64,000 bases of DNA. It comes from a virus. The position numbers were made by a program, and so were the translations under genes. Position 1 is the first letter of the stretch; every line of letters starts with the position of its first letter. The notes below the pieces were generated by a model. It worked only from the letters and a program-made list of their open reading frames with translations, made no database searches and was not told where the DNA came from. This document shows, piece by piece, positions 10 through 23,921 of the stretch. Location of the stretch: the IMG/VR virus record IMGVR_UViG_3300043570_002257, positions 32,001 to 96,000 of that record. The stretch is one strand, 5' to 3'.

Positions 10-1296
10 ATGATCTTATTACAATCAATTATCGAAGGCACAAGTTACCAAGTTAAAACTCTACCTAAACAATCTTTTGAAAAAACTTTGACACGTCACA
101 TTTGTGACTTCAAAATTACTTCTCCAATTGCAGAGTTTGCAAAATATCCATTAGGAACAATATTCATCACAGATGGATATGATTTTCCAGAAGATGACCA
201 TTTACACATTCGTAAAGAGAATGTTGTTGCTATGTTTTATGATAGCACAGTTTTTCCATTAGCACATTTAGAAAAAACTCGTTTGCAAGAAATGGCTGAA
301 TTTACTGTTAATTATATGATTGACAGTGAGTTCTATGGTATTGAAAAAGCAAAAGCAATGGCAGAACAATTTGCATCTTATGGTTATGAATATGACTGGG
401 ATACAATGATAGCTCCAAAACCTACAACAATAGGTGAATTACCTTCTGGTACAAATCTTAAACGTACTATTGCAGCAAACTACCCTGTACCTTCTGTTAA
501 TGATTGTGGTTTCCACATTGATCCAGATATGTGGTTCTTGCTTGTGAGAAATGTACTCAGAGGAGAAAACACTTTGTTAGTAGGACCAACAGGTTCTGGT
601 AAAACAGAAATTGTATCTCACCTTGCACTTGCAATGGAAAAACACATGTACATTCAAGACATGGGAACTGTTCAAGATGCTCAATCAGCATTACTTGGTG
701 TTCACCGTTTGAATAAAGAAGGTCACTCATCTTTTGAGTTTGCACCTTTTGTACATAACATTCAAGCAGGTGGTATCATGTTGTTAGATGAGTTGAATCG
801 TTCACCTCTTGCTGCAAATAATATCTTGTTTCCATGTTTGGACAAAAGACGTTACTTGCCAGTAGATATTGCATGTGAAGATTGTGATCGTAGAATTGCT
901 GTTAATGAGAACACTGTGTTCTTTGCAACTGCAAACCTTGGTTCTGAGTATTCAGGTACACATTCTATTGACCGTGCATTACTAGACAGATTCTTTCCTA
1001 TAGAACTTGATTACCCAATGGAAAAAGATGAGGTAAACATTATCAAATTACGCACTGGTATTGATGAAAAGTTTGCAACTGCAATTGTACGTGTATCTAA
1101 TGAGATACGCAAGCAATACAAAGAGCAAGAACTTTCAACTGCAGTTTCTGTTCGTCACACACTTCAAGCTGCAAGTCTTATTGCAGATGGTTTTGATGTA
1201 GACAAAGCATTACTTGCTACAATCATGCCTTTGTTTGAAGATGGTATTGGTGTTTCAGAACGTTCTAAAGTACTTTCTATTGTATCTGCATTTTAA
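10..1296 (+). CDS. MoxR/CbbQ/CobS-like AAA+ ATPase
   Basis: Walker A GPTGSGKT, Walker B MLLDELNR, ATAN sensor, DRALLDRF Arg-finger region; about 150-aa N-terminal extension; adjacent vWA gene. Confidence 0.9.
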   Translation: MILLQSIIEGTSYQVKTLPKQSFEKTLTRHICDFKITSPIAEFAKYPLGTIFITDGYDFPEDDHLHIRKENVVAMFYDSTVFPLAHLEKTRLQEMAEFTVNYMIDSEFYGIEKAKAMAEQFASYGYEYDWDTMIAPKPTTIGELPSGTNLKRTIAANYPVPSVNDCGFHIDPDMWFLLVRNVLRGENTLLVGPTGSGKTEIVSHLALAMEKHMYIQDMGTVQDAQSALLGVHRLNKEGHSSFEFAPFVHNIQAGGIMLLDELNRSPLAANNILFPCLDKRRYLPVDIACEDCDRRIAVNENTVFFATANLGSEYSGTHSIDRALLDRFFPIELDYPMEKDEVNIIKLRTGIDEKFATAIVRVSNEIRKQYKEQELSTAVSVRHTLQAASLIADGFDVDKALLATIMPLFEDGIGVSERSKVLSIVSAF

Positions 1297-1311
1297 GTTA
1301 AACAAAAATAT

Positions 1312-1339
1312 AAAGAGGGATGAAATACTCCCTCTTTTT
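1312..1339 (+). terminator. Hairpin with U-tract between the AAA and vWA genes
   Basis: aaagaggga-tgaaatac-tccctcttt followed by further T residues. Confidence 0.6.
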
Positions 1340-1351
1340 AAATAAATTCTC

Positions 1352-3229
1352 ATGAGCAAATTAATAAAAGATTGGTTTAACAGAAGAGCTGAAGACGCGT
1401 ACACATTCAATGATGAATCAAAACGTTTCTTCAACTGGGATAAAGATAGGAGTTCATACTCTTCATACTTTATCAGAAATGACGACTCACTAAAGGAAGC
1501 TTCTAAGATGATTGGCTCTATGTTTAGAGTGATTGGTGTACCTAAAACATTTAAGTACTCTAATGACATCCAAACAGGTAAAAGAGGCTATCGTGATGCT
1601 AAGGTTCAAGTACCTTTAAGCATGTTAAGAGATGAAGAAGGAAATTATCTTGACAGAGATGAAAAACTATTAGACGCTTTTTATGGTGCTGCTATTCAAA
1701 ATGCTGCTCTTGCAACTATGCAAACAACAAAAGAATATGAGAAAACCATGTTAATGCGTGATACTTCAAGTGGAGTAAGTGTAAAAGACTTGCTTGCAAG
1801 TGTACTAAACACAGAACGTATTGACAAAAAACTTGCAGACCGTCTTCCTGGTTATTTAAAGTTTGTTCAAAAATACAAAGAACATAGATTTGAAAACTAT
1901 GAAGGCCCTGGTGTAGAAGCACCAAAACAAAAACGCTTACTTGATCTTGTGGTAAAGATGTTACGCTATCCAGCTAACATTTCTGAAGAAGACATGGAAG
2001 ATTTTGGTGAACCTCTAAAAGCAATGGAGCGTATTCTTAAAAAACATGGTGGTATACCAAGTGACTTTGATAGTTGTGGCAGTATGGCAACAAGTTTGTC
2101 AAACATTGTATACAAATACACTGAAAAAGAAGAAGAACCTCCTGCAGGTGGTGGATCTGGTGAAGATGAATCTGATGATGGTGAATCTGAAGGTACAGGC
2201 ACTCCTACAAAAGCAACTCCTGAAATGAGTAAGGGAGAACTTAACGATTTTGCCAAAGAAATGATGGGTGCGTTAATTAATCCTGAAGAAGGTCCTTCTG
2301 GTAGTGATGACTTTAAGAATGAGTTTGAAGAATTTGTAGATGATATGTCTGAAACAACTCCAACTCCTCCAAGTTCTGATATTAACTGGGATGATGAAGG
2401 TGAAACCTCTCAAGGAAAACTTAACTGGAAAAAAGCTGTAGTAAATGAACATTCTAAAATTAGATACAGAAATGCTATAACAAAAATTGACACAACAAAA
2501 GCTGCTGTGTTACAAAAGTTGTTTGCTCGCAAGAGTAAAAACTATGAATTTAGCATGAAGTCTATGCGTTCAGGACGTTTGGATACAAATAAAATTGCAG
2601 AAGCTGCTCAACAAGTTCCTACTATATATGAAAGATTTGGTCAAGTAACAACAAGCAAAGTTTGCGTTGGTGTTCTTATTGATGAATCTGGATCTATGGG
2701 AGGTACTAAAATAGAAAAAGCAAGAGAAGCTGCAATTTTTATTAATGAAGTATTCAAGAAAATGCCTGATGTAGAACTATTTATTTATGGTCACACTGCA
2801 GATTTAAAAAGTGGAGAGTCTGTTGACATGACAGTGTATCGTGAGAAAGGATTCATCACTGATTCATTTTCTCTTGGTTCTGTTATACAACAAGCTAATA
2901 ATAGAGATGGTGATGCTATATTTGCAACAGCAAAACGTATGCGTAGTCAAACAGAAAATCAAGGATTACTTATTGTAATATCAGATGGTGCTCCAAGTGC
3001 TGTGGGTTATGGAGGACGTAGTGCAATTGAAGATACACGTAAAAAAGTTACGCGTGCTCAATCATTAGGTTTTCAAGTAATTCAGATTGCAATTGAAGAA
3101 CATGTTCCTTCTAAAGAGATGTTTGATTACTATATTCAAATGACAGATATTAGAAATCTTCCAAAAGATTTAGTAAATTACATGTCTAAGAAAGTAGATA
3201 AGCTTATCAAAGAAAAGATTACTATTTAA
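1352..3229 (+). CDS. vWA (MIDAS) domain protein, CobT-like partner of the AAA+ ATPase
   Basis: VLIDESGSM (DxSxS), ISDGAP, RSGRLD motif, acidic low-complexity linker. Confidence 0.88.
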   Translation: MSKLIKDWFNRRAEDAYTFNDESKRFFNWDKDRSSYSSYFIRNDDSLKEASKMIGSMFRVIGVPKTFKYSNDIQTGKRGYRDAKVQVPLSMLRDEEGNYLDRDEKLLDAFYGAAIQNAALATMQTTKEYEKTMLMRDTSSGVSVKDLLASVLNTERIDKKLADRLPGYLKFVQKYKEHRFENYEGPGVEAPKQKRLLDLVVKMLRYPANISEEDMEDFGEPLKAMERILKKHGGIPSDFDSCGSMATSLSNIVYKYTEKEEEPPAGGGSGEDESDDGESEGTGTPTKATPEMSKGELNDFAKEMMGALINPEEGPSGSDDFKNEFEEFVDDMSETTPTPPSSDINWDDEGETSQGKLNWKKAVVNEHSKIRYRNAITKIDTTKAAVLQKLFARKSKNYEFSMKSMRSGRLDTNKIAEAAQQVPTIYERFGQVTTSKVCVGVLIDESGSMGGTKIEKAREAAIFINEVFKKMPDVELFIYGHTADLKSGESVDMTVYREKGFITDSFSLGSVIQQANNRDGDAIFATAKRMRSQTENQGLLIVISDGAPSAVGYGGRSAIEDTRKKVTRAQSLGFQVIQIAIEEHVPSKEMFDYYIQMTDIRNLPKDLVNYMSKKVDKLIKEKITI

Positions 3230-3279: not shown

Positions 3280-3465
3280 ATGGCAAAGTCAAAAAAAGAA
3301 GAATCATCAGAAGTTGAGTACACAGTTGGACAAATTGTAAGGCACACTAAGTTTGGTAAAGGAGAAGTACTAAATGTTACAGCAGATGAATCTATCAAGG
3401 TACAATTTGGTAGACGTCAAGTAACACTATTGTTAAAGTACAATAAAACCACATTGTCATTTTAA
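3280..3465 (+). CDS. Stand-alone Tudor-like domain resembling the PcrA/UvrD C-terminal domain
   Basis: VGQIVRHTKFGKGEV...IKVQFG...LLLKY pattern. Confidence 0.6.
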   Translation: MAKSKKEESSEVEYTVGQIVRHTKFGKGEVLNVTADESIKVQFGRRQVTLLLKYNKTTLSF

Positions 3466-3651
3466 AACCAATAAGTAAAAATGATAGAAGCCAATGACAA
3501 TCAAGGTTTTATGAGCATAAAAGTCCAGTTTTTTAAGGAATAAACTGGACAAAGTGCATGAAACGTTACTAAAAATTTATACAAACATTTAACAAGCACC
3601 AATAAAACATTTAACAAAACCTTTCGGTGGTAGGTAAACCCAATTAAAACT

Positions 3652-4068
3652 ATGAAAACAGAAATCAAAATCACAGACTTAGAAAATGTTGAATTTCCTA
3701 TTATTATCAAGGATAAAAGAGGGAATATAATTTATAAACAATATGAAAATGGTGGTTGGTATAAATACACCTACGATAAAAATGGTAATGAATTAACCTT
3801 TAAAGATTCAAATGGTGATTGGTATGAATGTACATACAATGAAAATGGTAATGAATTAACCTTTAAAAATTCAGATGGTTTTTGGAGGGAATCTACTTAT
3901 GATGATGAAGGTAAAGAATTAACTTGTAAAAATTCATTGGGTTATTACAAAATTAAAGGCAAAGAGGTTACCAAAGAGGAATTTGAAGCTTTTGTAAATG
4001 GTACTACTGAATACACAATGGAAGAACTGGTTGCTAAACTTGGACACAACTTTAAAATTAAGAAGTAA
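3652..4068 (+). CDS. Short-repeat (YD-like) protein
   Basis: Three to four repeats of about 20 aa, YxYDxNGNELTFKxSxG. Confidence 0.7.
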   Translation: MKTEIKITDLENVEFPIIIKDKRGNIIYKQYENGGWYKYTYDKNGNELTFKDSNGDWYECTYNENGNELTFKNSDGFWRESTYDDEGKELTCKNSLGYYKIKGKEVTKEEFEAFVNGTTEYTMEELVAKLGHNFKIKK

Positions 4069-4081
4069 TTAAACTAAAAAT

Positions 4082-4349
4082 CTTTAAACAACAAACAAAA
4101 TGACACCAAAAGAAAAAGCAAAAGAATTAGTTGATAAGTTTTATCAAAGATTTCCATTAAAAATGAATGTAATTACAAGAAAAGGAGATTTATCTTGGGA
4201 ATATGATAATTGGGAAGAAGCCAAACAATGTGCATTAATAGCAGTTGATGAAATAATAGAAGCAGGTAAAGATGTTGATGAATTTGCAAATGCATATTGG
4301 TATAAAGTTAAAGCAGAAATTGATAACCTTTAAACAACAAACAAAATGA
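4082..4349 (+). repeat. 22-bp exact direct repeat flanking one small gene
   Basis: ctttaaacaacaaacaaaatga at 4082-4103 and 4328-4349; each copy includes a start codon. Confidence 0.9.
4100..4333 (+). CDS. Hypothetical phage protein (MTPKEKAKEL...AKQCALIAVDEI type)
   Basis: ORF with A-rich leader; N-terminal pattern typical of small Bacteroidota phage proteins. Confidence 0.7.
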   Translation: MTPKEKAKELVDKFYQRFPLKMNVITRKGDLSWEYDNWEEAKQCALIAVDEIIEAGKDVDEFANAYWYKVKAEIDNL

Positions 4350-4570
4350 AAGAATTAGAAATTCAAGAGACAAAAGCAACTGAAATTGCAATACCAAATA
4401 AAATAACATTGTATTGTTGTGTTTACTTCAATGACAATGGTATATTGTTTGCCAATTCACCTACAGAAGATAAAAGATATCAAGAGCAATACGCATTTAG
4501 TATGGGTAAAAATGTAGGAACATTAAGTATTTATAAGTTTGAAGTAGATGCACCTAAAATTAATTCTTGA
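4346..4570 (+). CDS. Hypothetical protein
   Basis: ORF with the duplicated leader. Confidence 0.6.
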   Translation: MKELEIQETKATEIAIPNKITLYCCVYFNDNGILFANSPTEDKRYQEQYAFSMGKNVGTLSIYKFEVDAPKINS

Positions 4571-4602
4571 ACAATACTACAACAAAACATTTGGAGGTAA
4601 AG

Positions 4603-4809
4603 ATGAGCAATAAACAAACAGCAGTAGAATGGATAGAAGATAAAATACAATCTGATATGACATTTATTGAAATTCTTGGGTTAATAAGACAAGCCAAAGA
4701 AATGCACAAACAAGAGGTAACTGATGCTTGGGAAGATGGACATGATTCTTTCTCAACAAGGAATGCAGAACAATATTACAAAGAAACATTTAATGTAGAA
4801 CCAACATGA
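4603..4809 (+). CDS. Hypothetical phage protein (KQTAVEW...AEQYYKETF type)
   Basis: ORF 4567-4809; likely ATG start at MSNKQTAVEW. Confidence 0.65.
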   Translation: MSNKQTAVEWIEDKIQSDMTFIEILGLIRQAKEMHKQEVTDAWEDGHDSFSTRNAEQYYKETFNVEPT

Positions 4810-4883
4810 TAACATTTTTATTAATAGTATTGGTATTGTACTTAGTTTCAATCCATAACACACTTCAAAAATTTAAAAAATAA
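4806..4883 (+). CDS. 25-aa single-TM micropeptide (absent from ORF track)
   Basis: MITFLLIVLVLYLVSIHNTLQKFKK; ATGA overlap with the upstream stop. Confidence 0.5.
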   Translation: MITFLLIVLVLYLVSIHNTLQKFKK

Positions 4884-4886
4884 ACA

Positions 4887-5015
4887 ATGACAAAAGAACT
4901 AAGATTGTGGTTAACATCTTTGTTAATCAAATGGGCTATGAATATATGTCCTGAAGGTAGTTTTAAAAGTGCACCTTATCTATTTGTAAAATACAACATA
5001 ACTAATTTAAAATAG
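4887..5015 (+). CDS. 42-aa small protein (absent from ORF track)
   Basis: MTKELRLWLTSLLIKWAMNICPEGSFK...; fills the gap between genes. Confidence 0.5.
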   Translation: MTKELRLWLTSLLIKWAMNICPEGSFKSAPYLFVKYNITNLK

Positions 5016-5022
5016 TAATATT

Positions 5023-5232
5023 ATGAATTTACATCAAGTTAAAGCAAATGAACAGTTTTTTAACACTATTTTAAATAGTGTTGATGAGTATGGAATTTGG
5101 TGTTGGAAAGATAAAAATCTTATCTATAAAAAAGTAGGTAACAAACTTACAGCCAACTCAGAAGATTTAGCATACATAAAAGAACTTGTTTCAAATGAAT
5201 ATTTTGAGAATAATTTTGTAACATCAACCTAA
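5023..5232 (+). CDS. Hypothetical protein
   Basis: ORF in a tightly packed array. Confidence 0.65.
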   Translation: MNLHQVKANEQFFNTILNSVDEYGIWCWKDKNLIYKKVGNKLTANSEDLAYIKELVSNEYFENNFVTST

Positions 5233-5237
5233 AAGAA

Positions 5238-5633
5238 ATGGAAGAAATAAAACAATTAGTTTACAACTCTGTGACTTGTCAAGAGTGTAATGAAACTATT
5301 GTAAGTTACAATAGACATGACTACAAAACATGTTCTTGTCCTAATGAAGCAATGGTAGATGGTGGCACTGACTATCTTAGGTATGGTGCAGCAGATATGA
5401 CAAAAATTAAAATCTTTGCTGTTTATACAGATGATGATTTTGAACTTGTACGCAAGTACGCTACACGTGGAGGAAGAGGTATTGATGGTAAACAACCATT
5501 AACTTATGTTCCTTTATGTGAAATGAATGATGACTGGTTAGAAGCTGTATTAGATTACGGTGGTGCTAACTGGCATGTTGATCTTATTAAAAAAGAAATT
5601 AAATACAGAAAAGACCATGGCAGAACTGCATGA
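5238..5633 (+). CDS. Zn-ribbon-like phage protein
   Basis: CQEC...HDYKTCSC...VDGG..YLR pattern. Confidence 0.7.
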   Translation: MEEIKQLVYNSVTCQECNETIVSYNRHDYKTCSCPNEAMVDGGTDYLRYGAADMTKIKIFAVYTDDDFELVRKYATRGGRGIDGKQPLTYVPLCEMNDDWLEAVLDYGGANWHVDLIKKEIKYRKDHGRTA

Positions 5634-5853
5634 AACATTGATGGGAAGAAAACTTATTGAGCAAGTAATTCCAGATATTGCTGACAATCTTGCTAAGATT
5701 GCAACAGCAATGGAACAACAAACAAAAATCTTTACAGAAAGTGCTATCCAAGTATCTATTTGTTTCTATGAAGATGATGATGGCAAAAAAGTCTATGATA
5801 TTGATCATATGGAAGAAGAATTTTATCAAAAGTTAAAAGAACTTGAATCATGA
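5617..5853 (+). CDS. Hypothetical phage protein
   Basis: Likely start MAELHETLMGRKL within ORF 5560-5853. Confidence 0.6.
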   Translation: MAELHETLMGRKLIEQVIPDIADNLAKIATAMEQQTKIFTESAIQVSICFYEDDDGKKVYDIDHMEEEFYQKLKELES

Positions 5854-6296
5854 AAAAAGTATTAATTGGACATGTTGGTGTTGACTCAGGTCAGTTACTA
5901 TTATGTGATCCCTGCAACATTGATTCTCAATGGAAAGAAGAAGAGTTTATAGATATCAGAATCTATGAACATGTGACAACAAAAGAAAAGCTACAATATA
6001 GAGTAGACTTTCCTCATTATGAACAAGAAATACCAAAATATGGTAAAACAATGAATGAGTTGATTAGTACAGGTGAATGGAAACAATTTGACGTAAGTGA
6101 TTCAGCACAACATTCATTTAGTTACAACTCTTGTTGTCTTGCTACTTTGTCTGAAAAACGCAATGGTCAGTTACACAATGAATTTGGTCATGAAGTTGGA
6201 GTGGCTTTTTCAACAGCATGTGGTGATGGTGCGTATCCTGTATATGCAATGTATAGCAATGACGGAATTTTAAAATCTGTAACTGTAGAATTCTAA
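5850..6296 (+). CDS. DUF4241-like protein
   Basis: VGVDSGQLLLCDP and TACGDGAYPVY motifs. Confidence 0.6.
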   Translation: MKKVLIGHVGVDSGQLLLCDPCNIDSQWKEEEFIDIRIYEHVTTKEKLQYRVDFPHYEQEIPKYGKTMNELISTGEWKQFDVSDSAQHSFSYNSCCLATLSEKRNGQLHNEFGHEVGVAFSTACGDGAYPVYAMYSNDGILKSVTVEF

Positions 6297-6299
6297 CTT

Positions 6300-6551
6300 A
6301 TGAAAGATTTAAAAATAAACAAAAAACCATTCAGCGAAACAAAACATTATTCTGGTACTTACACTTGTGACTGTTCTCAGTGGGAAGATGAATTACAAGA
6401 AGATGTTTATGAATTTACTCTTATAGTAAACATTGACAATGAAAATGAATCAACATCAATAGAAGAAATCATATGGGTTGGTAAACAACCACGTGATTTA
6501 GATGGAGCTGAAGATTATGTAAAAGAAAACTTTTTTGAACTTATTAATTAA
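6300..6551 (+). CDS. Acidic hypothetical protein
   Basis: ORF. Confidence 0.6.
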   Translation: MKDLKINKKPFSETKHYSGTYTCDCSQWEDELQEDVYEFTLIVNIDNENESTSIEEIIWVGKQPRDLDGAEDYVKENFFELIN

Positions 6552-6556
6552 TTATT

Positions 6557-6874
6557 ATGGAACCTTTAGATGAATTTTTAGAGAAAATAGATTCTCCAGT
6601 ACAACAAGAACTAATTGAAGAAAGATACAGATTTGCTCATCCATACATTGATCATGAAGGAAGAGAACAAACTTCTAGTGTAGAATTACATATAGACTTT
6701 GAAGCTCAAACTTTTAAAGTATATCCAGGTGATGGTAGAGGTGAATTTGGTTTTGTTTCAGGTTCTCACAGATTTAATATGTGGCTTGCAACTACAAAAT
6801 GTTTAACAGCTGCTATTGAATTTGCAGTAAAATCTTTAAATCTTGTAACAGATGAGTCATCCTTTACATCATAG
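6557..6874 (+). CDS. Hypothetical protein
   Basis: ORF. Confidence 0.6.
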   Translation: MEPLDEFLEKIDSPVQQELIEERYRFAHPYIDHEGREQTSSVELHIDFEAQTFKVYPGDGRGEFGFVSGSHRFNMWLATTKCLTAAIEFAVKSLNLVTDESSFTS

Positions 6875-7250
6875 TATTTCAAGCCAAAAGAAATGGGGTG
6901 GGCATGTAGATGACTACTTGCCTATCCATAATTGGTTTGATGAAACTAAAATGCACTATCCTGATATGAGGCATAGAGCATTAAGACATCACTCAGAAGG
7001 AATCTTCTGGTGTGAACATGAATTTGGCACATATATCACTAACTCAGAAGGACGTATGGTTCCTGTAAGAGCAATTGGTGAACAACATTGTATGGAAGAC
7101 CTTGGTTGGATTCCAACAATTAAAGATTATCTAGATCACATGGAGGTTCAAGGTTGGATGTTTAAACCAGGTGATGGAAGAAAAATGTTAAAAGAAATGT
7201 CAAAAGACAAATCTGATTTTGTAAAAAAAGATAAATCAAAAGAATCATGA
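6852..7250 (+). CDS. His-rich conserved protein (DUF6915-like)
   Basis: HPLHHSISSQKKWGG...IHNWFDETK...RHRALRHHSEGIF...EQHCMEDLG. Confidence 0.75.
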   Translation: MSHPLHHSISSQKKWGGHVDDYLPIHNWFDETKMHYPDMRHRALRHHSEGIFWCEHEFGTYITNSEGRMVPVRAIGEQHCMEDLGWIPTIKDYLDHMEVQGWMFKPGDGRKMLKEMSKDKSDFVKKDKSKES

Positions 7251-7933
7251 GTGAAGAAAAAGAAATCACAATCAAACAAATCCTTGACTGGTGTTTAAAG
7301 AAAACACAAGAAGGTTCTGAAGTTATCCTAAAATGGGATGGTGGAGGAGATTCAGGATGGGTTCATCTTGAAGTAGATGAAGAAGACAGTAGTGATCCTG
7401 AAGCAGAAAAGCTTATAGACATGATGTATGACCAACTTGACTATGGTTCATGGGCTGGTGAATTCTCTGCATCTGGTGAAGCTTCGTTTGATCCTGAAAC
7501 ACAAATGTTTCAAGGTACTGACTATTACACAGAAAATGATTCACAAAGTGTAGAAACAAATATTGAAATTAGAATTCCAAAACACATTCATTTTAGTGAT
7601 TTAGAAATTCATACAGAAGATCTAGACTGTACTGTTACTGTTACTTTTGGTATTAGAAATGGTTTTGACCATCCTGATGCAAAAGATTTAGCTACACAAT
7701 TAGAAGAAAGACTTTCAACAGAATTTATAGAAGCTGCTAAGGATGACGTAGATGATGAAAGTAATATTGAAGGATTCTATGAAACATATAATTTATTTAG
7801 ATCTGATTTTACAGAAGACGGTGATGACCTTGTATATATTATGAAAGAAATATTATATAATAAAAGTTTTACCACTGAAAACTATGTAGAGATTAATTTA
7901 CAAGAACTTTTAGAAGAAGAAGAAGCTGAATAA
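7247..7933 (+). CDS. Acidic protein (DUF6878-like N-terminus)
   Basis: WDGGGDSG motif; ATGA coupling to the upstream gene. Confidence 0.65.
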   Translation: MSEEKEITIKQILDWCLKKTQEGSEVILKWDGGGDSGWVHLEVDEEDSSDPEAEKLIDMMYDQLDYGSWAGEFSASGEASFDPETQMFQGTDYYTENDSQSVETNIEIRIPKHIHFSDLEIHTEDLDCTVTVTFGIRNGFDHPDAKDLATQLEERLSTEFIEAAKDDVDDESNIEGFYETYNLFRSDFTEDGDDLVYIMKEILYNKSFTTENYVEINLQELLEEEEAE

Positions 7934-7935
7934 CC

Positions 7936-8637
7936 ATGAACTATCAAGAACTAAAGTACACAGTAGAGAACCAATCTGGTGTCTCTTATGAAAATGCATT
8001 GATTCTATGGAAAACAATGTACAAAGACTTCAATGATTTTTTGACAAATGTAATCATTTATGATTCTATGAAAGATTTTGGTGATCATTGTGCATCAGTC
8101 TGGAAAAACGTAGAAGTTGCAACAGCTCAAGATGCTTTTAGCCAAGAAAATCTAGAAATACGTAGGTTATTCTTCAGAGCTATTGGTATTGAAAAAATGT
8201 TTCAAGAACTTGACCCTGAACTTATTGCTGAAGAAACTATTGTATTTAACAATTCTGTTTGGAATGATAAAGACAAAAGTATGGATGTAAAAATTATTCA
8301 TGATAAGTATGAATTATACAAAATCAAAGGTGATAAGTTATTTCCAGAAGAAAAGTCTGAATGGCGTAGAGCTAATGCAGATATCTATGCTGTACGTTGC
8401 TGGTGTACAACCACAGGACGTGAGTATTGGATTTATGTACCAAAAAATGTTGGTGAAAAGAAAGATGCAATTGAAGCAATTGCTTGGACTTTTCAGTTAA
8501 ACATCTCTGACCCTGAAGCATTGTATCGTCAAGGTGATATCATTATTGCTCAAGCAGGTGTTAATTCAAAAGAATTATCGCGTCCTTATCATTTGGATAA
8601 AGATACATACTTAAAACTTTTAAAAGTACAATCATAA
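7936..8637 (+). CDS. DUF6745-like protein
   Basis: NLEIRR...CTTTGREYWIYVP...AIEAIAWTF...RQGD. Confidence 0.65.
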   Translation: MNYQELKYTVENQSGVSYENALILWKTMYKDFNDFLTNVIIYDSMKDFGDHCASVWKNVEVATAQDAFSQENLEIRRLFFRAIGIEKMFQELDPELIAEETIVFNNSVWNDKDKSMDVKIIHDKYELYKIKGDKLFPEEKSEWRRANADIYAVRCWCTTTGREYWIYVPKNVGEKKDAIEAIAWTFQLNISDPEALYRQGDIIIAQAGVNSKELSRPYHLDKDTYLKLLKVQS

Positions 8638-8882
8638 TGGCAAAAACAAATTGTCATGACTGCATTCACTCAAGAAGTAATTCATTCATGAACTCTGCAC
8701 ACATACACTGTGCTATGTACTGGAAGTATTATAAGAAAAACAAATCATCTCATCCTAAAGGTACAGAACATGCTGTAAAAAATGGATGGTGGGATTTTCC
8801 TTATGATTTTGACCCAGTATGGATGACAGAAGACTGTAGAGAGTATAAAGAAAAAGAACAAGTACCTGAATCAAAATTGTAA
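8637..8882 (+). CDS. Cys/His-rich small protein
   Basis: CHDC...HIHC...GWWDFPYDFDPVW...C. Confidence 0.65.
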   Translation: MAKTNCHDCIHSRSNSFMNSAHIHCAMYWKYYKKNKSSHPKGTEHAVKNGWWDFPYDFDPVWMTEDCREYKEKEQVPESKL

Positions 8883-8883
8883 C

Positions 8884-9135
8884 ATGAAAACAAAATCAGC
8901 AAAACGTGTGGTATTAGCCACAGGAGAAGGAGCAAATACTCATGCTATATCAAGCAATGAGCGTATAATCTATGAAGATTTGGGAAACCAAACTTTAAAA
9001 CTTATATTAGCAGAAAAAGCTTTGATAACACATGAAGAGCATGGTCCAATCATGCTCAATCCTGGTTTTTATTATAAGACAAATCAAGTGGAGTTCAATC
9101 CATTTAATAATACAGTTTCTTACGTTTTTGACTAA
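8884..9135 (+). CDS. Small putative metal-binding beta protein, a usual DUF6745 neighbour
   Basis: VLATGEGANTHAI...THEEHGPIMLNPGFY...QVEFNP. Confidence 0.65.
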   Translation: MKTKSAKRVVLATGEGANTHAISSNERIIYEDLGNQTLKLILAEKALITHEEHGPIMLNPGFYYKTNQVEFNPFNNTVSYVFD

Positions 9136-9151
9136 GAAATTGTGAAAAATT

Positions 9152-9204
9152 CACAAAAACAAGGGTTTAAGGTTGCAATTTGTGATCTTAGACCTTGTTT
9201 TGTG
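9152..9204 (+). terminator. Long GU-rich RNA hairpin
   Basis: cacaaaaacaagggtttaaggttgcaa / ttgtgatcttagaccttgttttgtg. Confidence 0.55.
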
Positions 9205-9246
9205 TATTAAAATATTTTTTGTAATATTGCATTTAAAACCAAACTA

Positions 9247-9822
9247 ATGAAAAACTGGACAATCTTTCCAGGTAGAAAATACAATTACATTCATACAATG
9301 AACATTACCATTGATGATATAAGAGCTGTATTTTTTCCTAAAACTTTCTCTGAGAAATATAGTTATCTTGGTTTAATACCAGGATGGAAAAAGAATGAAG
9401 CTATGACAATGCTCAAGGCCCTTGTTATTGCAATGGACTATGAAGCAAAACCTTGGTGGTGTCCAAGATGGTTTTTGCGTTTCTTAAACTTATTTGGTTC
9501 TGATAATTCTATTGTTAGAGTTAGAAATAGACGTCTTCACAATCTTGAAAAGAAACTTACAAAAGGTATTATGATGTGGGACCACAAAACAAAGTGGACG
9601 CATTATGACTTAAGAATTAGTATATCAGCTCCAAGATATCTTCAAGATTTAGCTGATGCTATTGAGTACAAAGTGTATAGTCTTGGTAGACAAGATGAAC
9701 TTGTTGAAGAGATTCTTTCTTTAGACCCAAATGCTTCAATAATAAGAGGTAGTGCTACAAGACTGGGAGAACAACTAATTGAATTAAAAAAATCTTTAAA
9801 CTTATATATACATGAAGATTGA
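9247..9822 (+). CDS. Hypothetical protein
   Basis: 191-aa ORF, Trp-rich KPWWCPRWF. Confidence 0.7.
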   Translation: MKNWTIFPGRKYNYIHTMNITIDDIRAVFFPKTFSEKYSYLGLIPGWKKNEAMTMLKALVIAMDYEAKPWWCPRWFLRFLNLFGSDNSIVRVRNRRLHNLEKKLTKGIMMWDHKTKWTHYDLRISISAPRYLQDLADAIEYKVYSLGRQDELVEEILSLDPNASIIRGSATRLGEQLIELKKSLNLYIHED

Positions 9823-9961
9823 AATTACAATGACAGAACTTTTACTCATAGTTGATATGATTAAAAATGGTGTTGAAAAAACTGAACCAAGTACTTCAGA
9901 TGAAGACTTTTTAAATAACTATGTTGCTGAAAAAAAACCAGAACAAAATGACACATTTTGA
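9812..9961 (+). CDS. 49-aa small protein (absent from ORF track)
   Basis: MKIEITMTELLLIVDMIKNG...NDTF; overlaps its neighbours at both ends. Confidence 0.5.
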   Translation: MKIEITMTELLLIVDMIKNGVEKTEPSTSDEDFLNNYVAEKKPEQNDTF

Positions 9962-10184
9962 CACTCCTCCTCCAATAATTCTTACTATAAAACATTATGG
10001 TAAAACACTTACTGCTGAACTTCCATGGGATTCACCATTAGATGATGTCTATTTAGCAATACAAGGATTACTTGTAGCTGATGGTTTTCACAATGATGGT
10101 ATTGAAAATTTCATTATTGAACAAGGAGAAGAACTTAAAGAACTAAAACACAAAAATAAAGAATATTATGAAAGTGAAGATTAA
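9948..10184 (+). CDS. Hypothetical protein
   Basis: Likely start MTHFDTPPP within ORF 9921-10184. Confidence 0.6.
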   Translation: MTHFDTPPPIILTIKHYGKTLTAELPWDSPLDDVYLAIQGLLVADGFHNDGIENFIIEQGEELKELKHKNKEYYESED

Positions 10185-10590
10185 ACTCTTAAATAAAAAT
10201 GCTGTAGTTCCAGTTTATGCAAAACCAGGTGATGCTGGGTTAGACCTTGTTGCTACACACATTATTAGTTATGACAAAGAACAAGTAGTATATGGAACTG
10301 GACTTGCAATAGAGATACCAGAAGGATATGTAGGACTTGTATTTCCACGCAGCTCAATACGTAAGTATGAACAATACCTCAGCAATTCTGTTGGTGTTAT
10401 TGATTCAGGATACCGTGGAGAAATTCAAGCAACTTTTAACTCACGTTTTTACGCAGATGTAAAATACAAAGCAGGTGAAAAGATTGCACAATTAATTATA
10501 ATGCCTTATCCTCAAATTGAGTTTGAAGAAGTTACTGAACTATCAGAAACTGAAAGAGCTGATGGAGGTCATGGTTCAACAGGTAAATAA
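10168..10590 (+). CDS. dut: Trimeric dUTPase
   Basis: All five motifs: AGLDL, RSS, GVIDSGYRGEI, KIAQL, RADGGHGSTG. Confidence 0.97.
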   Translation: MKVKIKLLNKNAVVPVYAKPGDAGLDLVATHIISYDKEQVVYGTGLAIEIPEGYVGLVFPRSSIRKYEQYLSNSVGVIDSGYRGEIQATFNSRFYADVKYKAGEKIAQLIIMPYPQIEFEEVTELSETERADGGHGSTGK

Positions 10591-10591
10591 T

Positions 10592-10738
10592 ATGACTTTT
10601 AAACTATATTTAGAATTTAACTCAAGAAGATTTGGATTTGCTTTAATACATGAGAAGCAATTTGTTTCTTCTGAATTTAAACATAAGTTGTTTATACATT
10701 TCTTATGGTTTGAAATTGGAGTTAAATTTCTACAGTAA
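10592..10738 (+). CDS. Small hypothetical protein
   Basis: Likely ATG just after the dut stop. Confidence 0.5.
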   Translation: MTFKLYLEFNSRRFGFALIHEKQFVSSEFKHKLFIHFLWFEIGVKFLQ

Positions 10739-10749
10739 AACTTTTATTT

Positions 10750-11118
10750 ATGATTGTAAATAAAAACAGTGGTCAGGTTATAATAATTGGACCATATGGT
10801 AGTGTATTTCTATATACACATGATACAGCAGATACACTTATCAAAGATGTACATGACGCATTGAAAGTAGGTACAAGATGGAATGATCCTGATTACTTAT
10901 CTAAAATGATTTTCTGTAGAATGTTACCTATAGAATGTTGGTTAGAAGACAAAGGTTTTGGAATTGGTACTCAAATGTACAATGACGTAAACCTACTTAT
11001 ATCAGTTAACACTATCAATCAGACTATAACAATCCATTCTATGGAAGATAAATATAACAAAACTTTGCTTACTTTTCAAGAATTTGTTGACTCTTATGCC
11101 AACAATGCCAGTTTATAA
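10750..11118 (+). CDS. Hypothetical phage protein
   Basis: VFLYTH...RWNDPDYLSKMIF...GFGIG. Confidence 0.7.
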   Translation: MIVNKNSGQVIIIGPYGSVFLYTHDTADTLIKDVHDALKVGTRWNDPDYLSKMIFCRMLPIECWLEDKGFGIGTQMYNDVNLLISVNTINQTITIHSMEDKYNKTLLTFQEFVDSYANNASL

Positions 11119-11229
11119 TAAAATCATAGCAATATAGTACAGTTATAATTTTAAATGCGTATATTTACATATTCAATGTTCTGAGAATAATAGTATTTTA
11201 GTGCCAGAATATAAAACACTGAAACTCAA

Positions 11230-11520
11230 ATGCTATATCAATTGCCAAATGGTAAATGTATAGAAATCTCAATAGAGCAATACTTGAGAATGACAGATGA
11301 TGAATTGACCATGTATGTGGCTTTCAACTATGGTGAAGAAATTAATGATCCTTTTGCTTTAAGCGTTTTGAAATATGGAAACGTCACAGAAAAAGAAGAA
11401 ATTATTGATGAAGACTCAATCACAGTAGAAGAAGAATACATTGAAGATTTAACAGATGTTCTTCCTGAAGAAAAACTTTATGATGATGAATACATTGACT
11501 ACGACAACTTAGAACAGTAA
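11230..11520 (+). CDS. Conserved hypothetical protein with acidic tail
   Basis: MLYQLPNGKCIEISIEQYL; D/E-rich C-terminus. Confidence 0.7.
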   Translation: MLYQLPNGKCIEISIEQYLRMTDDELTMYVAFNYGEEINDPFALSVLKYGNVTEKEEIIDEDSITVEEEYIEDLTDVLPEEKLYDDEYIDYDNLEQ

Positions 11521-11535
11521 CCTTATTAGATAAGA

Positions 11536-11952
11536 ATGCTGCAATCAAAATTAAAAACATGCTCAGCTTGTGGTGAAGACAAAGTAATATGGAAAAATCA
11601 TGAGGGTGAAAAGTTCTGCAAAGACTGCTGGAACAGAAAATCACCTGTGAAATTTCCTAAGAAGACAGGAATATTAAAACTGACTTCTGATAAAAGAAAA
11701 CCTTTGGATTTACTTTACACAAAAATGAGGAAGGACTTCTTGTCTAAATCTGAAAACGCTACATGTTTTGCTAAACTTCCTGGATGCCTTAATTCCATGG
11801 CTGAAAATCTCACAATACATCACACAAAAGGACGTGGAAGATACTATCTTGATAGTACCACATGGATTCCTTTGTGTATGACATGTCATCAATGGGTAGA
11901 AGAGCACCCTGCACAAGCAAAAGAACTCAATTTATCACAATCTAGATTATAA
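11536..11952 (+). CDS. Zn-finger HNH-type nuclease
   Basis: CSACG/FCKDC plus C...GC...IHHTKGRG...LCMTCHQWVE. Confidence 0.7.
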   Translation: MLQSKLKTCSACGEDKVIWKNHEGEKFCKDCWNRKSPVKFPKKTGILKLTSDKRKPLDLLYTKMRKDFLSKSENATCFAKLPGCLNSMAENLTIHHTKGRGRYYLDSTTWIPLCMTCHQWVEEHPAQAKELNLSQSRL

Positions 11953-11962
11953 AAAGAAAAAA

Positions 11963-12280
11963 ATGAAAAAATTCATTGGTTATTACATTATTGGTGCAAA
12001 CACAAAAGAAGATGCACAAAATGAAAAAGGTTTAATGCTTTGGTCTCCAAATAAACCAAATGCACTTAAACGTTTGTTGAATGAAATGTTGTTGGGTATC
12101 TACTGGGTAGACAAAGACAGAGTTGTTGGTGGACAAGAAAAAGGTAAAACTATGCAATCTGAAGGTCAACCTGTAGAACTTGCAAAAGTTAAAGATGTTC
12201 CTGTAGCAGAAAAACCTAAAGTAAAAGAAGCTCCAAGAAAGCCTCGTCAAACTCCAAGGGTTAATCCTTCAAAGAACTAA
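11963..12280 (+). CDS. Hypothetical protein with basic Pro-rich tail
   Basis: ORF. Confidence 0.65.
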   Translation: MKKFIGYYIIGANTKEDAQNEKGLMLWSPNKPNALKRLLNEMLLGIYWVDKDRVVGGQEKGKTMQSEGQPVELAKVKDVPVAEKPKVKEAPRKPRQTPRVNPSKN

Positions 12281-12290
12281 ACACAAAGAA

Positions 12291-13406
12291 ATGGACAACT
12301 CACTTGAATTAAATAAAAGAGAGTTGATTCAACAGGAAGCCCTGACTGCATCTACCACCCATTATAGATGTGGTCTGGGTATTTCCATGGGTGTAGGTAA
12401 AACCTTAATTGGTTTACGTCACATGGAAAAAGAGTTTCCAAGTTTAAAAACTAAATTTCTGGTAGTAGCTCCAAAAGTTTCAATCTTTGAAAGCTGGAAA
12501 GATGATGCTAAAAAGTTTGGACTAGAATACTTGTTGGATCATATTGACTTCACAACGTACATATCATTAAGTAAAAAAACAAGAGAATATGATGTCATCT
12601 ATTTAGATGAGTGTCATAGTCTGTTATTTACTCATGATTATTATTTGGCTACATACACAGGTAAGATTCTTGGTTTAAGTGGTACTCCACCACGTTACAA
12701 GAACTCTGAAAAAGGTGAGATGGTTAATAGGTATTGTCCTATTGTCTACACTTACATTACAGATGACGCAGTAGAAGATAAAATTCTTAATGACTACAAA
12801 ATCATTGTTCACAGATTACCATTATCAAATGCTAAAACTCATAAGGTATCAACCAAAAAAGGTGGATTCTTTATGACTTCTGAATCTCAGAACTATGATT
12901 ATTGGTGTGGAAGACTTAATAGTGCAGCAAATCCTGCACAAACTAAAATCTTTAGAATTATGAGAATGCAGGCATTAATGCAATTTGGTTCTAAAGAAAA
13001 GTATGCCAGACAATTGTTAAACATGATGGATGACAAATGTCTTGTCTTCTGCAATACAACTGATCAAGCTGATAGAATTTCTGTACATAGTTATCATAGT
13101 AAGAATTCTAAAAGTGAAGAAAAATTGCTTGCATTTAAAGATGGTGAGATAGATGAACTTACATGTGTTCAACAATTGAATGAAGGTATTAACATTCCAA
13201 ACTTAAAGTATGGTATTATACTACATGCATATTCTAATGAAAGAAAAGCTAGTCAAAGAATAGGACGTTTATTGCGTTTGAATCCTGATGATAAAGCAAT
13301 CATTCATATACTTATGTATGGTAATACTGTAGATGAAGGCTGGGTTCAAGATGCATTAAGAGATTTAGACTCTGAAAAAATTATTTACACAGATCCTGTT
13401 TGTTAA
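12291..13406 (+). CDS. Superfamily 2 (DExH) helicase
   Basis: MGVGKT, LDECH, LSGTP, EGINIP, QRIGRLLR. Confidence 0.92.
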   Translation: MDNSLELNKRELIQQEALTASTTHYRCGLGISMGVGKTLIGLRHMEKEFPSLKTKFLVVAPKVSIFESWKDDAKKFGLEYLLDHIDFTTYISLSKKTREYDVIYLDECHSLLFTHDYYLATYTGKILGLSGTPPRYKNSEKGEMVNRYCPIVYTYITDDAVEDKILNDYKIIVHRLPLSNAKTHKVSTKKGGFFMTSESQNYDYWCGRLNSAANPAQTKIFRIMRMQALMQFGSKEKYARQLLNMMDDKCLVFCNTTDQADRISVHSYHSKNSKSEEKLLAFKDGEIDELTCVQQLNEGINIPNLKYGIILHAYSNERKASQRIGRLLRLNPDDKAIIHILMYGNTVDEGWVQDALRDLDSEKIIYTDPVC

Positions 13407-13409
13407 ATT

Positions 13410-13802
13410 ATGCACAACACAATAGTTAAATTCACAAAAAAAGATGGACAACTTGTTCCTGCTTCAGAAGCTGATGCTGGAAAACTAAAACTTTTTGCAA
13501 TGTCTTTGAAAGAAGGCACTGAATTAGAAGTTTACATGTCCATGACAAACAACGTTGACAAAACTGCTGGACAACTTGCAAAAGTCCATGCGTTAATTAG
13601 AGAACTTGCAAGCTACACTGGTCACACCTTTGATGAAATCAAATTTGTTATAAAAGACAAAGCTGGTCTGTATAATATTACAGGAACCAGCTCATCTGAC
13701 AAACAATTAAAAAGTTTTGGTGATTGTTCTAAGGAAGAATTATCTACAGCCATTGAAACCTGCATTGAAGTAGGTCACATGTTTGGTTGTAACTTATATT
13801 AA
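13410..13802 (+). CDS. NinB/YbcN-like recombination accessory protein
   Basis: TAGQLAKVHALIRELA..TG....IK...KS....SKEEL..AIE pattern. Confidence 0.5.
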   Translation: MHNTIVKFTKKDGQLVPASEADAGKLKLFAMSLKEGTELEVYMSMTNNVDKTAGQLAKVHALIRELASYTGHTFDEIKFVIKDKAGLYNITGTSSSDKQLKSFGDCSKEELSTAIETCIEVGHMFGCNLY

Positions 13803-14137
13803 TCTTCAGATTCACCAATTAGTTTTTGTGCTTCTTCTAAAGTTACTTTTTGAACAAATCCTTGTTCTTGTGCTTTAGATTCAAATTCTCTACAAAGAAT
13901 TAAGATTGTCTCATACTGACTAACCCATTCCTCTGTAATGTTTTGGTCTTTAATTTGTGTATGAGCATTCTGCATTTCTTCTGCAGATTTACCTTGTACA
14001 AAAAAAGCAACAATTGCTTGAATTCTTTGATAGTACCCTGTACTTATCTTAATTTCAACAATTGCACTTGGCATAATAACTTCAACCGTTGACGGTTGGT
14101 TTTCTGCACTTTCATTAGTTTGATTTACTTCAGACAT
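13799..14137 (-). CDS. Lone opposite-strand hypothetical gene
   Basis: ORF 13799-14170, likely start MSEVNQ at 14137; has its own promoter. Confidence 0.7.
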   Translation of the reverse strand: MSEVNQTNESAENQPSTVEVIMPSAIVEIKISTGYYQRIQAIVAFFVQGKSAEEMQNAHTQIKDQNITEEWVSQYETILILCREFESKAQEQGFVQKVTLEEAQKLIGESED

Positions 14138-14157
14138 GTCGTGTAGTTTAATTTCAA

Positions 14158-14188
14158 CAAAAATAAACAAATAATTTAAAGTTTCAAA
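14158..14188 (-). promoter_or_regulatory. Bacteroidota primary-sigma promoter
   Basis: TTTG-N19-TATTTTTG on the minus strand. Confidence 0.65.
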
Positions 14189-14192
14189 AAAA

Positions 14193-14918
14193 ATGACAGA
14201 AAAAATTGCTATTCATCCAAAAGACATCAGTTTAAAGTTAGCAGACCTATTGAAAGAATCAGGTTGGCACAATGTCCTTAAAGGATTTTTGCTATCTGAA
14301 GACTTTGATAAAATTATTTTTGCTTTAAAAGACCAAGTGGACAACGACAAACGTTTTACACCTCCTTTGAAGCAAGTATTCAGATCCTTTCAAGAATGTC
14401 CTACAGATGACTTAAAAGTGGTATTCATAGGGCAAGATCCCTATCCTCAAATGAATGTGGCAGATGGTATCTCTTTTTCTTGTGGTAACACCATGAAAAA
14501 AGAAGCATCACTGCGTTATATTCATAATGCAATTGCAAAAACTGTTTACAATGACAAAGTTCTAGCAAAAGATTTATCTGCAGACTTAACCCCATGGGCT
14601 AATCAAGGTATTCTTATGCTAAATACTTCTCTTACAACAGAAATTGGCAAAATTGGCAAACATTTTAGTATTTGGGAACCATTTACTAACTATGTACTTG
14701 ACATGATTAACTCTATGGACAAGTCAATTATTTTTGTCTTTCTAGGTAAAAAAGCTCAGGAATATGAAGATCTTATTTCTGACAAACATGTTAAACTTTA
14801 TGCGTCACACCCAGCATCTGCTGCGTATCAAAAACAACAAGAGTGGGATTGTAATGATGTTTTCAATAAGATAAATGAAAAACTTACAGAAAATAATCAA
14901 AAAATTATTGCATGGTAG
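14193..14918 (+). CDS. ung: Uracil-DNA glycosylase, family 1
   Basis: GQDPYP, ADGISFS, WANQGILMLN, SHPAS. Confidence 0.93.
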   Translation: MTEKIAIHPKDISLKLADLLKESGWHNVLKGFLLSEDFDKIIFALKDQVDNDKRFTPPLKQVFRSFQECPTDDLKVVFIGQDPYPQMNVADGISFSCGNTMKKEASLRYIHNAIAKTVYNDKVLAKDLSADLTPWANQGILMLNTSLTTEIGKIGKHFSIWEPFTNYVLDMINSMDKSIIFVFLGKKAQEYEDLISDKHVKLYASHPASAAYQKQQEWDCNDVFNKINEKLTENNQKIIAW

Positions 14919-23920: not shown

Positions 23921-23921
23921 A

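Follow-up and report, generated by a model that had tools for sequence, protein, structure and literature searches.

The window analyzed here is a stretch of 64,000 nucleotides (nt) that comprises bases 32001-96000 of the 120,226-base IMG/VR virus record IMGVR_UViG_3300043570_002257 (estimated completeness 95%). Its subject is a group of small phage genes at 6852-9135, where five plus-strand open reading frames (ORFs), O1 to O5, were confirmed (Table 1), and four of which, O1, O2, O3, and O5, are referred to below as the cassette. The original prediction, made from the letters of this DNA, described five tightly coupled ORFs closed by a hairpin; the coordinates, the junctions and the hairpin all proved correct, and every motif quoted was present in the translations. 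O1 and O2 overlap by 4 nt, O2 and O3 are separated by 2 nt, O3 and O4 overlap by 1 nt, and O4 and O5 are separated by 1 nt. The hairpin starts 27 nt 3' of O5, and the 126-nt stretch around it folded better than shuffled sequence (z -2.68; 5 of 200 shuffles did as well). However, tight packing is not special to these five genes. Gaps of 13 nt or less extend from about 4887 to 9135, save for one gap of 44 nt and one of 77 nt that adjoin doubtful small ORFs, and the start of O1 overlaps the upstream ORF by 23 nt. O1 to O5 thus close a longer run of packed genes at its 3' end and are not the separate operon that had been proposed.

Table 1. Features of the cassette region (positions in the window).
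Feature	Position	Strand	Description
O1	6852-7250	+	132 aa, 12 His; DUF6915 protein; candidate metal-binding or hydrolase subunit
O2	7247-7933	+	228 aa, acidic, two-domain; DUF6878-like by predicted fold; candidate scaffold bridging the gene pairs
O3	7936-8637	+	233 aa, distant DUF6745-like protein with C-terminal RQGD segment; candidate catalytic or ligand-binding subunit
O4	8637-8882	+	81 aa Cys/His mini-protein; lineage-specific insertion outside the conserved cassette
O5	8884-9135	+	83 aa small His/Glu protein; about the C-terminal two thirds of the DUF6745-associated partner
Terminator-like hairpin	9162-9196	+	16 pairs plus T-run; ends the packed gene run

Phages and bacterial conjugative elements have the same four families in a common order, which puts the arrangement far beyond chance. 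O4 was detected in 11 of 80 related phage loci, all from the closest relatives, was absent from every copy in an integrative and conjugative element (ICE), and had no match in Pfam, PHROG, NCBIfam or PADLOC. As an insertion, O4 falls outside the functional unit, which is the four genes O1, O2, O3, and O5 and not the five-member module originally described.

Conservation in phages was evaluated with 80 IMG/VR loci collected by an O3 profile, whose O3 proteins were 40-90% identical. O1 was present in 74 of these loci, O2 in 77 and O5 in 75, and every missing gene fell at a contig end except O1 in one locus (L061). The gap between O2 and O3 did not exceed 20 nt in 74 of 76 loci, nor did that between O1 and O2 in 64 of 74; O3 and O5 lay within 100 nt of each other in 45 of 75 loci, and the remainder held other genes between them. 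Among 28 de-replicated loci whose two flanks each span at least 3.5 kb, the complete set of four genes occurred in fixed order in 28/28 by the presence table and in 27-28/28 by clustering, and the downstream helicase was kept in 26/28, the dUTPase in 15/28 and the upstream genes of the window in 7-11/28. Because loci fetched with O3 are ascertained through O3 itself, the helicase was also used as an anchor (29 loci with at least 7 kb upstream). All four genes were present in 14 of 14 helicase-anchored loci with a helicase at least 65% identical, and the cassette was present in none of the 15 loci at 51-60% identity, three of which keep DUF6915 alone; O3 was found nowhere in five long contigs of this second group. 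The cassette is stable within phage clades but not universal. Tblastn searches with O2 and O3 detected nothing in 50,697 phage records, and DNA similarity to isolated phages was confined to an 82-nt stretch of O1, matched in nine Bacillus phage records.

A scan with the O3 profile of one genome per species, covering 185,579 species, yielded 10 further loci. All were from Bacteroidota (Niastella vici, three Pedobacter species, Chitinophaga cymbidii, and metagenome-assembled genomes, MAGs) except one on a short MAG contig. O1, O2, O3, and O5 were contiguous and ordered, without O4, in all nine scan loci with enough flank and in both loci obtained by sampling host families. The cassette is rare: among 401 genomes sampled across the phylum only the seed genome carried it, and strong matches numbered 3 of 301 genomes in the family of Pedobacter africanus and 2 of 301 in that of C. 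cymbidii. The cellular loci lie inside CTnDOT-type ICEs, as recognized by TraJ, TraM, DUF4138, a MobA/VirD2 relaxase, MobC, a YWFCY-TraG coupling protein and a tyrosine integrase. The carriers are conjugative elements of soil Bacteroidota. No PLSDB plasmid (72,556 searched by tblastn) contained O2 or O3. The ICE copies are 24-44% identical to the window proteins, so co-occurrence of the families reaches far beyond close relatives; the system is not specific to phages, because ICEs carry it too.

In ICEs, the cassette belongs to a same-strand block that also encodes a single-stranded DNA-binding protein (SSB), a ParB-like protein, an ArdC-like zincin, DUF3560, DUF932, a Prim-Pol, an HNH protein, a ligase-like protein, a MoxR-AAA protein with DUF2201/VWA, an orphan methyltransferase, phosphoadenosine-phosphosulfate (PAPS) reductase-like proteins and the PRTRC cassette. 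In two Pedobacter ICEs the cassette is located upstream of MobC and the relaxase, at a distance of roughly 8 and 17 ORFs; in two others the relaxase is more than 20 kb away. When the cassette and its surroundings (about 40 kb) from five ICEs were compared by BLASTP with all ORFs of the window, O1, O2, O3, and O5 were shared, along with one unrelated match. Families present on both sides, AAA/VWA and DUF932, showed no direct similarity between their phage and ICE copies by BLASTP at 1e-4. The exclusive sharing of the four cassette genes between the ICE regions and the window is the strongest evidence for a discrete functional unit as opposed to inherited synteny. In trees, which were built for O2 and O3, the ICE copies of O2 formed one clade (support 100/98), and a single ICE clade was not rejected for O3 (p-AU 0.425).

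Several other features of these elements were recorded. The unrelated match joins a 225-aa ICE protein (L117 18344-19021) to the 2183-aa giant ORF of the window (E 5e-15). Defense-type cargo, namely SIR2-like plus HerA, HamA plus helicase (Hachiman-like), a KAP NTPase and DUF6602, occurs in the cassette ICEs (L111 13702-17321; L117 13238-16740; L116), in some of them within 20 kb of the cassette. The ICE genes just 3' of O5 (282, 370, and 364 aa; L112 2239-4402, L113 17159-18250) have no Pfam family and match PADLOC SspD weakly (E 1e-5 to 1e-6), and PAPS-reductase-like genes lie just upstream in two ICEs. L100, a 9-kb contig binned as a Micavibrio MAG, carries O3 and O5 followed by genes of 374 and 131 aa, sizes that resemble the phage arrangement (helicase plus 130-aa gene), and may be a phage fragment mis-binned into the MAG.

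O1 belongs to DUF6915, as originally labeled. It matched PF21866 over model positions 1-102 of 102 (E 6.2e-44; 148.8 bits vs a cut-off of 27), and its ICE copies matched at E 1e-21 to 1e-23. An alignment of 33 sequences (15 from cassette phages, 10 from ICEs and 8 from other lineages) showed H7, D30, K33, H41, R42, H46, G59, G67, H79, and D83 to be invariant, and H7, D30, K33, H41, R42, H46, H79, and D83 look like a metal site. From the His/Asp/Glu pattern our guess would be an HD-like or hemerythrin-like metal-dependent hydrolase fold. A sequence-profile search of the PDB with O1 gave nothing significant (best E 0.75), and an Atlas search returned unnamed clusters only.

DUF6915 itself occurs in 127 records of isolated phages (Streptomyces 90, Bacillus 13, Gordonia 12, Sinorhizobium 4, and others), and tblastn found O2 and O3 in none of them. 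A lone DUF6915 gene of 201 aa occurs on a second Niastella contig (L115 9997-10599) without O2, O3 or O5, about 3 kb from a gene for a large LRR-Roc-COR-TIR protein. In phages of Streptomyces, Gordonia (two), Synechococcus and Sinorhizobium, the gene immediately 3' of DUF6915 belongs to one unnamed acidic family (L002 2942-3439; L127 3395-3964; L129 3396-3893; L128 3362-3841; L126 3373-4005) whose members are related by BLASTP at 1e-11 to 1e-50 and share the motifs W-x-QYTPYFNDG and FGDPA; LukeCage gp137 has no Pfam match. Judging from these motifs and matches, DUF6915 has a conserved partner in phages of other phyla too. A relationship of these "FNDG" proteins to O2 or DUF6878 was unsupported (hhalign probability 0.2% and 0.1%), and a second "O1 paralog" proved to be an artifact of single-linkage clustering with an unrelated 138-aa Cys/His family.

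The O2 gene product is strongly acidic (isoelectric point 4.05; 27% Asp plus Glu). The label DUF6878 that it had been given stood for the fold and failed for the sequence model. No Pfam match of any kind was found for the 53 members of the O2 family; the DUF6878 model PF21798 (gathering score 24.3 bits) matched 0 of 25 at E ≤1 and 0 of 28 at E ≤0.01, and it matched nothing anywhere in the phage at E ≤10. However, when the AlphaFold2 model of O2 (predicted local distance difference test, pLDDT, 92.5) was compared with BFVD by Foldseek, the sole match at E ≤0.001 was a 231-aa protein with a DUF6878 domain (E 3.4e-6, probability 1.00, template modeling score 0.44/0.44 over 242 columns; next match 1.7e-2). 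Atlas gave DUF6878 as a lead, and a lead only (score 0.82; 183 shared features), and pairwise hhalign placed O2 and DUF6878 profiles in register over the GGGDSG hairpin, though weakly (E 0.0016, probability 16%). O2 is thus DUF6878-like by its predicted fold and not by the sequence rule of the family. A PP-loop or serine-protease reading of GGGDSG was rejected, as the motif forms a beta-hairpin turn in the model and not a strand-loop-helix.

Apart from D35 and D92, the invariant positions of O2 (35 sequences) are for the most part Gly or aromatic residues, a pattern as expected of a putative scaffold. O2 had 208 metagenomic clusters at 90% identity and, among 1.84 billion proteins, 303 clusters at 50% identity, nearly all of 215-250 aa and matched over full length; no fusion was seen among the best 150 cluster matches. 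A tandem duplicate of O2 (226 plus 221 aa, highly diverged) lies between O1 and O3 in L090 (4200-5542) and L091 (1965-3307). The most distant O2 relatives had been considered as an independent context, and they are these second tandem copies inside the same cassette.

A DUF6915 gene with a DUF6878 neighbor was found in relatives of the phage that lack the cassette. PF21798 scored above its cut-off in two of five long contigs searched (G980 and G981), and each of these has its DUF6878 gene directly adjoining DUF6915 (overlaps of 4 and 1 nt). The pairing is not general, because PF21798 found no match in 11 DUF6915-bearing genomes or records, this phage included. Like this pair, the cassette has a full-length DUF6915 protein and a protein that shares the predicted DUF6878 fold, encoded by genes that overlap by 4 nt. 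O2 differs in being twice the length of the PF21798 model, with an extra C-terminal domain, and the order differs, with DUF6915 first in the cassette and DUF6878 first in the phage pair.

The label DUF6745 did not hold for O3, which scored 20.6 bits against PF20530, below the cut-off of 27, and aligned to positions 169-198 of the 206 in the model. Eighteen of 24 O3 relatives matched PF20530 at E ≤1 (best 1.2e-6), and a few carry a precomputed PF20530 label. O3 is a distant relative of the DUF6745 C-terminal core and no member by Pfam's rule. Its invariant residues (34 sequences) include N72, E74, R76, R77, D123, R154, C155, C157, T159, T160, R162, R198, Q199, G200, and D201, a polar set that would suit a catalytic or phosphate-ligand site. 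O3 had 518 metagenomic clusters at 90% identity, and its AlphaFold2 model a pLDDT of 91. In comparisons with the PDB, neither the O2 nor the O3 model had a Foldseek match at E ≤0.001, and the best Z of the wide VIA search was 5.0 for O2 (latexin; MHC-like platforms at Z of about 4.5) and 4.3 for O3, both below the stated background of Z 7-8; these negative results are no proof that the folds are new.

O5 belongs to a family of at least 556 clusters of about 81-100 aa without a Pfam domain. L11, H20, H50, E52, H53, Q68, E70, P73, and D83 are invariant among 29 sequences, and H20, H50, E52, H53, Q68, E70, and D83 look like a second metal site; the candidate metal-ligand histidines of both O1 and O5 are thus invariant, in line with the metal dependence first envisaged. 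A cupin-like fold would be our guess from the His/Asp/Glu pattern, and a PDB sequence-profile search with O5 gave no match. Pfam, NCBIfam and PADLOC hold no family for O2, O4 or O5, NCBIfam matched none of the cassette proteins, and a cluster look-up found no named protein among the relatives of O2, O3, and O5.

An O5-like gene adjoins a DUF6745-type gene in all three non-cassette loci. In G454, a DUF6745-type protein of 417 aa stops just past its A-W-T-F helix, and the overlapping next gene (115 aa) begins with an RQGD strand followed by O5-like sequence (O5 model E 2.8e-6). G182 has an O5-like gene (E 6e-13) directly 5' of a DUF6745-type gene that contains stop codons, and G099 has, as recognized by eye only, a 127-aa gene with the same motifs 5' of another DUF6745-type gene. 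O5 and the small partner share the motifs G-E...H, H-x-E-H, and Q-x-E-x-x-P. The full-length G454 partner had one weak match in isolated phages (E 7e-4). The C-terminal core of the DUF6745-type proteins (Cys...T..R.Y...VP and A.AWT motifs) recurs in O3, but O3 has 233 aa vs 320-450 aa, and the N-terminal RQGD strands of the small (R/H)QGD...H-x-E-H partner sit at the C-terminus of O3 and are missing from O5. The C-terminal 49 residues of O3 can be aligned to the N-terminal end of the G454 partner (score 41 vs 22.9 ± 4.4 for shuffles, 2 of 300 of which reach it), O5 aligns with the remainder, and the O3 tail plus O5 equal about one full partner in length. We infer that O3 and O5 may each carry part of the partner fold in the cassette and would for that reason be forced to associate.

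The cassette joins two older pairs, one in which DUF6915 is coupled to a DUF6878-type protein and one in which a small His/Glu protein accompanies a DUF6745-type protein. Both pairs had been named in the original prediction as separate recurring units, and both exist as such (in 2/2 contigs and, one of them by eye, in 3/3 loci); their union in one module is supported and now extends to ICEs.

The pairs may also be linked physically. The predicted O2-O3 complex had an ipSAE interface score of 0.75 (median; runs 0.63, 0.75, and 0.75) vs 0.00 for the best of three controls. A score of this size was attained by 58 of 80 solved complexes and by 2 of 110 mismatched pairs, a calibration that is only rough as custom alignments were used. 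The runs had at least 97% of contacts in common, with partner pLDDT of at least 81. Residues 112-115 and 135-143 of O2 are predicted to lie against the N-terminal hairpin and A21/W25 of O3; N138 and G139 of O2 are at least 90% conserved, and A21 of O3 is invariant. An interface within the module, as had been anticipated, is thus predicted, and the model supports binding but does not demonstrate it.

The phage arm around the cassette encodes MoxR/CbbQ-type AAA+ and CobT/VWA proteins (AAA+ and VWA genes at 10-3229), a dUTPase, a superfamily 2 helicase, a uracil-DNA glycosylase, DnaB, a primase, a PD-(D/E)XK nuclease, DUF932 (23874-24737), a deoxynucleoside monophosphate kinase, a ribonucleotide reductase and ThyX. 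A DUF4241-like gene lies two genes upstream of the cassette (5850-6296; 24.9 bits, below the cut-off; phrog_5209 E 2e-12) and in several distant phage loci stands between O3 and O5 (e.g., L050, L052, L053, L056, L066, L067, and L095). It was detected in 37 of 80 phage loci and in none of the scanned ICE loci and may be loosely associated with the cassette in phages only. The minus strand at 35494-64000 contains four giant ORFs (1890-2795 aa). Shine-Dalgarno-like sequences were not visible 5' of the plus-strand genes at 3280-14918, where the leaders are A/T-rich; we take this, like the ICE homologs, to fit a Bacteroidota host. The window contains no tRNA genes. No tyrosine integrase was detected in the phage at its estimated 95% completeness, while 14 of 14 control genomes matched (serine recombinases were not searched), and the carriers are large, probably virulent phages.

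Genomic context makes establishment or counter-defense for incoming DNA the most likely role of the cassette, because it is carried by two kinds of invading DNA and because the ICE cassette lies among classic establishment and anti-restriction-type genes. Our preferred interpretation, which we advance tentatively and at slightly less than an even chance, is that O1, O2, O3, and O5 are a self-contained cassette that moves as a unit between Bacteroidota phages and CTnDOT-type ICEs and forms an establishment or counter-defense complex. The four proteins would assemble into one metal-dependent complex in which acidic O2 would be the bridge between the O1 pair and the O3/O5 pair, since O2 is the conserved neighbor of O1 and is predicted to dock onto O3. 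Docking would occur by strand addition on the N-terminal hairpin of O3, whose C-terminal RQGD strands would combine with O5 to restore the full-length partner fold. Metal ions would be bound by O1 and O5. With its five invariant Arg residues and Cys-x-Cys, O3 would recognize a ligand rich in phosphate, such as a nucleotide or nucleic acid. Shortly after the DNA has entered the cell, the cassette would act on behalf of the incoming element, most probably against host defense; otherwise, it would process the DNA or nucleotides of the element itself. A bolder version, possible but somewhat unlikely in our estimation, is a previously unknown four-subunit metalloprotein machine, its two ancestral two-gene modules joined by acidic O2, that phages and conjugative elements of Bacteroidota alike would deploy at entry to disarm a host immune pathway; a nucleotide-type signal would be destroyed or sequestered, or a nucleic-acid target modified.

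Several points weigh against an establishment or counter-defense complex. The complex prediction covers O2-O3 only, one of six possible protein pairs, and the structure models cover O2 and O3. The match of the O3 C-terminus was significant for one of the three partners only, the invariant residues of O2 yield no catalytic clue, and the 80 phage loci were ascertained through O3. Placement in a "leading region" of the ICEs is an assumption, with position counted from MobC/relaxase and not from the origin of transfer (oriT). Whole phage clades keep the cassette (14/14 at ≥65% helicase identity), and such stability is more typical of core replication or metabolism than of a fast-turnover anti-defense gene. 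Together with the position in the phage replication arm and the PAPS-reductase-like or weakly SspD-like genes that flank the cassette in several ICEs and hint at DNA modification, this stability fits a role in DNA or nucleotide processing instead.

By that alternative, which we judge unlikely on balance, the cassette would be no counter-defense device but an accessory of DNA or nucleotide metabolism or of DNA modification for replication of the element itself, e.g., an enzyme that modifies bases or the backbone, or a nuclease or phosphatase linked to replication. This alternative would account for a phage cassette that lies between the MoxR-AAA/VWA genes and those for dUTPase, helicase, uracil-DNA glycosylase, DnaB, primase, ribonucleotide reductase and ThyX, and that is as conserved within the clade as the neighboring helicase (27-28/28 vs 26/28 loci; 14/14 when helicase-anchored). 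The Prim-Pol, HNH, ligase-like, SSB and ParB-like neighbors in ICEs, the directly adjoining PAPS-reductase-like PP-loop genes, the weak SspD matches downstream and the five invariant Arg residues of O3 are also consistent with it. However, searches of Pfam, NCBIfam and the PDB (by sequence and by fold) revealed no similarity of the cassette proteins to any known enzyme of nucleic acids or nucleotides. The cassette is also dispensable for that replication module, because the sister phage clade with a helicase 51-60% identical does without it (0/15 loci; O3 in 0/5 whole contigs), and it occurs in only about 1% of the genomes of two host families.

The cassette could also be defense or exclusion cargo that protects the host, and hence the resident element, from other phages and plasmids. 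The defense genes within 20 kb in some ICEs (SIR2-like plus HerA, HamA plus helicase, KAP NTPase, and DUF6602) would suit such cargo, and multi-gene systems with novel folds are typical of defense islands. Yet PADLOC 2.0 gave 0 matches for O1-O5 and two ICE cassettes (E ≤0.01), and in ICEs the cassette lies in the establishment/replication block, in the same orientation, and not among the cargo genes. A virulent phage would gain little from a system that protects its host. Because of the PADLOC result and the probably virulent phage, we consider defense improbable and the least likely when set beside counter-defense and DNA or nucleotide processing. A very improbable explanation is that there is no joint function at all, and that two pairs or four independent genes became neighbors by chance and were transferred together once. 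Each pair does occur alone, DUF6915 is found without O2 or O3 in the 127 phage records and at the second Niastella locus, and a single phage/ICE split fits the data, so that co-occurrence could reflect one transfer event. Against a chance assembly, order and adjacency are kept down to 24-44% identity although every flanking gene has been replaced, the set is never split apart despite insertions between O3/O5 and O1/O2, and the predicted O2-O3 interface, with its clean controls, involves conserved residues.

The cassette belongs to no known kind of system. Gene sets of the polyvalent-protein or ArdC type, reportedly treated by Iyer and colleagues in 2017, are said to be common to phages and conjugative elements and to serve host conflict. 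A MPTase-PolyVal zincin gene lies in the same ICE block as the cassette, but the cassette consists of four separate small proteins and not of one multidomain protein. Most of the first 30 leading-region ORFs of conjugative plasmids are enriched in anti-defense genes, and such genes sit on the transferred strand (Samuel et al., 2024; PMC11541004). As in the anti-defense islands described there, the cassette is in a one-strand block with SSB, methyltransferase, ParB-like and ArdC-like genes, lies within about 8-17 ORFs of MobC/relaxase in two ICEs, and is carried by phages in the non-structural arm. In contrast, no cassette member matches a known anti-defense protein, no PLSDB plasmid has O2 or O3, and the cassette elements are ICEs of Bacteroidota, a phylum without mention in the passages of PMC11541004. 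The cassette families are mentioned neither in the available parts of PMC11541004 nor in those of PMC5512222, and a term search of the latter did not find DUF932, PRTRC, PAPS, DUF3560, DUF3085 or DUF4241. A literature search returned no paper containing DUF6915, DUF6745, DUF6878, PF21866 or PF20530.

Gene sets common to otherwise unrelated phages and conjugative elements are rare and usually mark functions needed by any invading DNA. The four cassette families have no characterized member, and two have confident predicted folds that lack a solved relative. The history of the cassette is cleanly modular, with two pairs giving one cassette and a specific predicted contact joining them. No phage of the lineage has been isolated, but the cassette is present in cultured strains of Pedobacter, Niastella, and Chitinophaga, so genetics is possible now. 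Solving the cassette would provide the first function for DUF6915, which is encoded by at least 127 genomes of isolated phages whose hosts span six or more genera, and for DUF6878 and DUF6745. Should the four-subunit immune-disarming machine prove true, it would be a new class of multi-component counter-defense system with new folds. More broadly, the cassette may reveal a new mechanism of counter-defense or DNA processing in Bacteroidota, whose mobile-element biology has been little explored.

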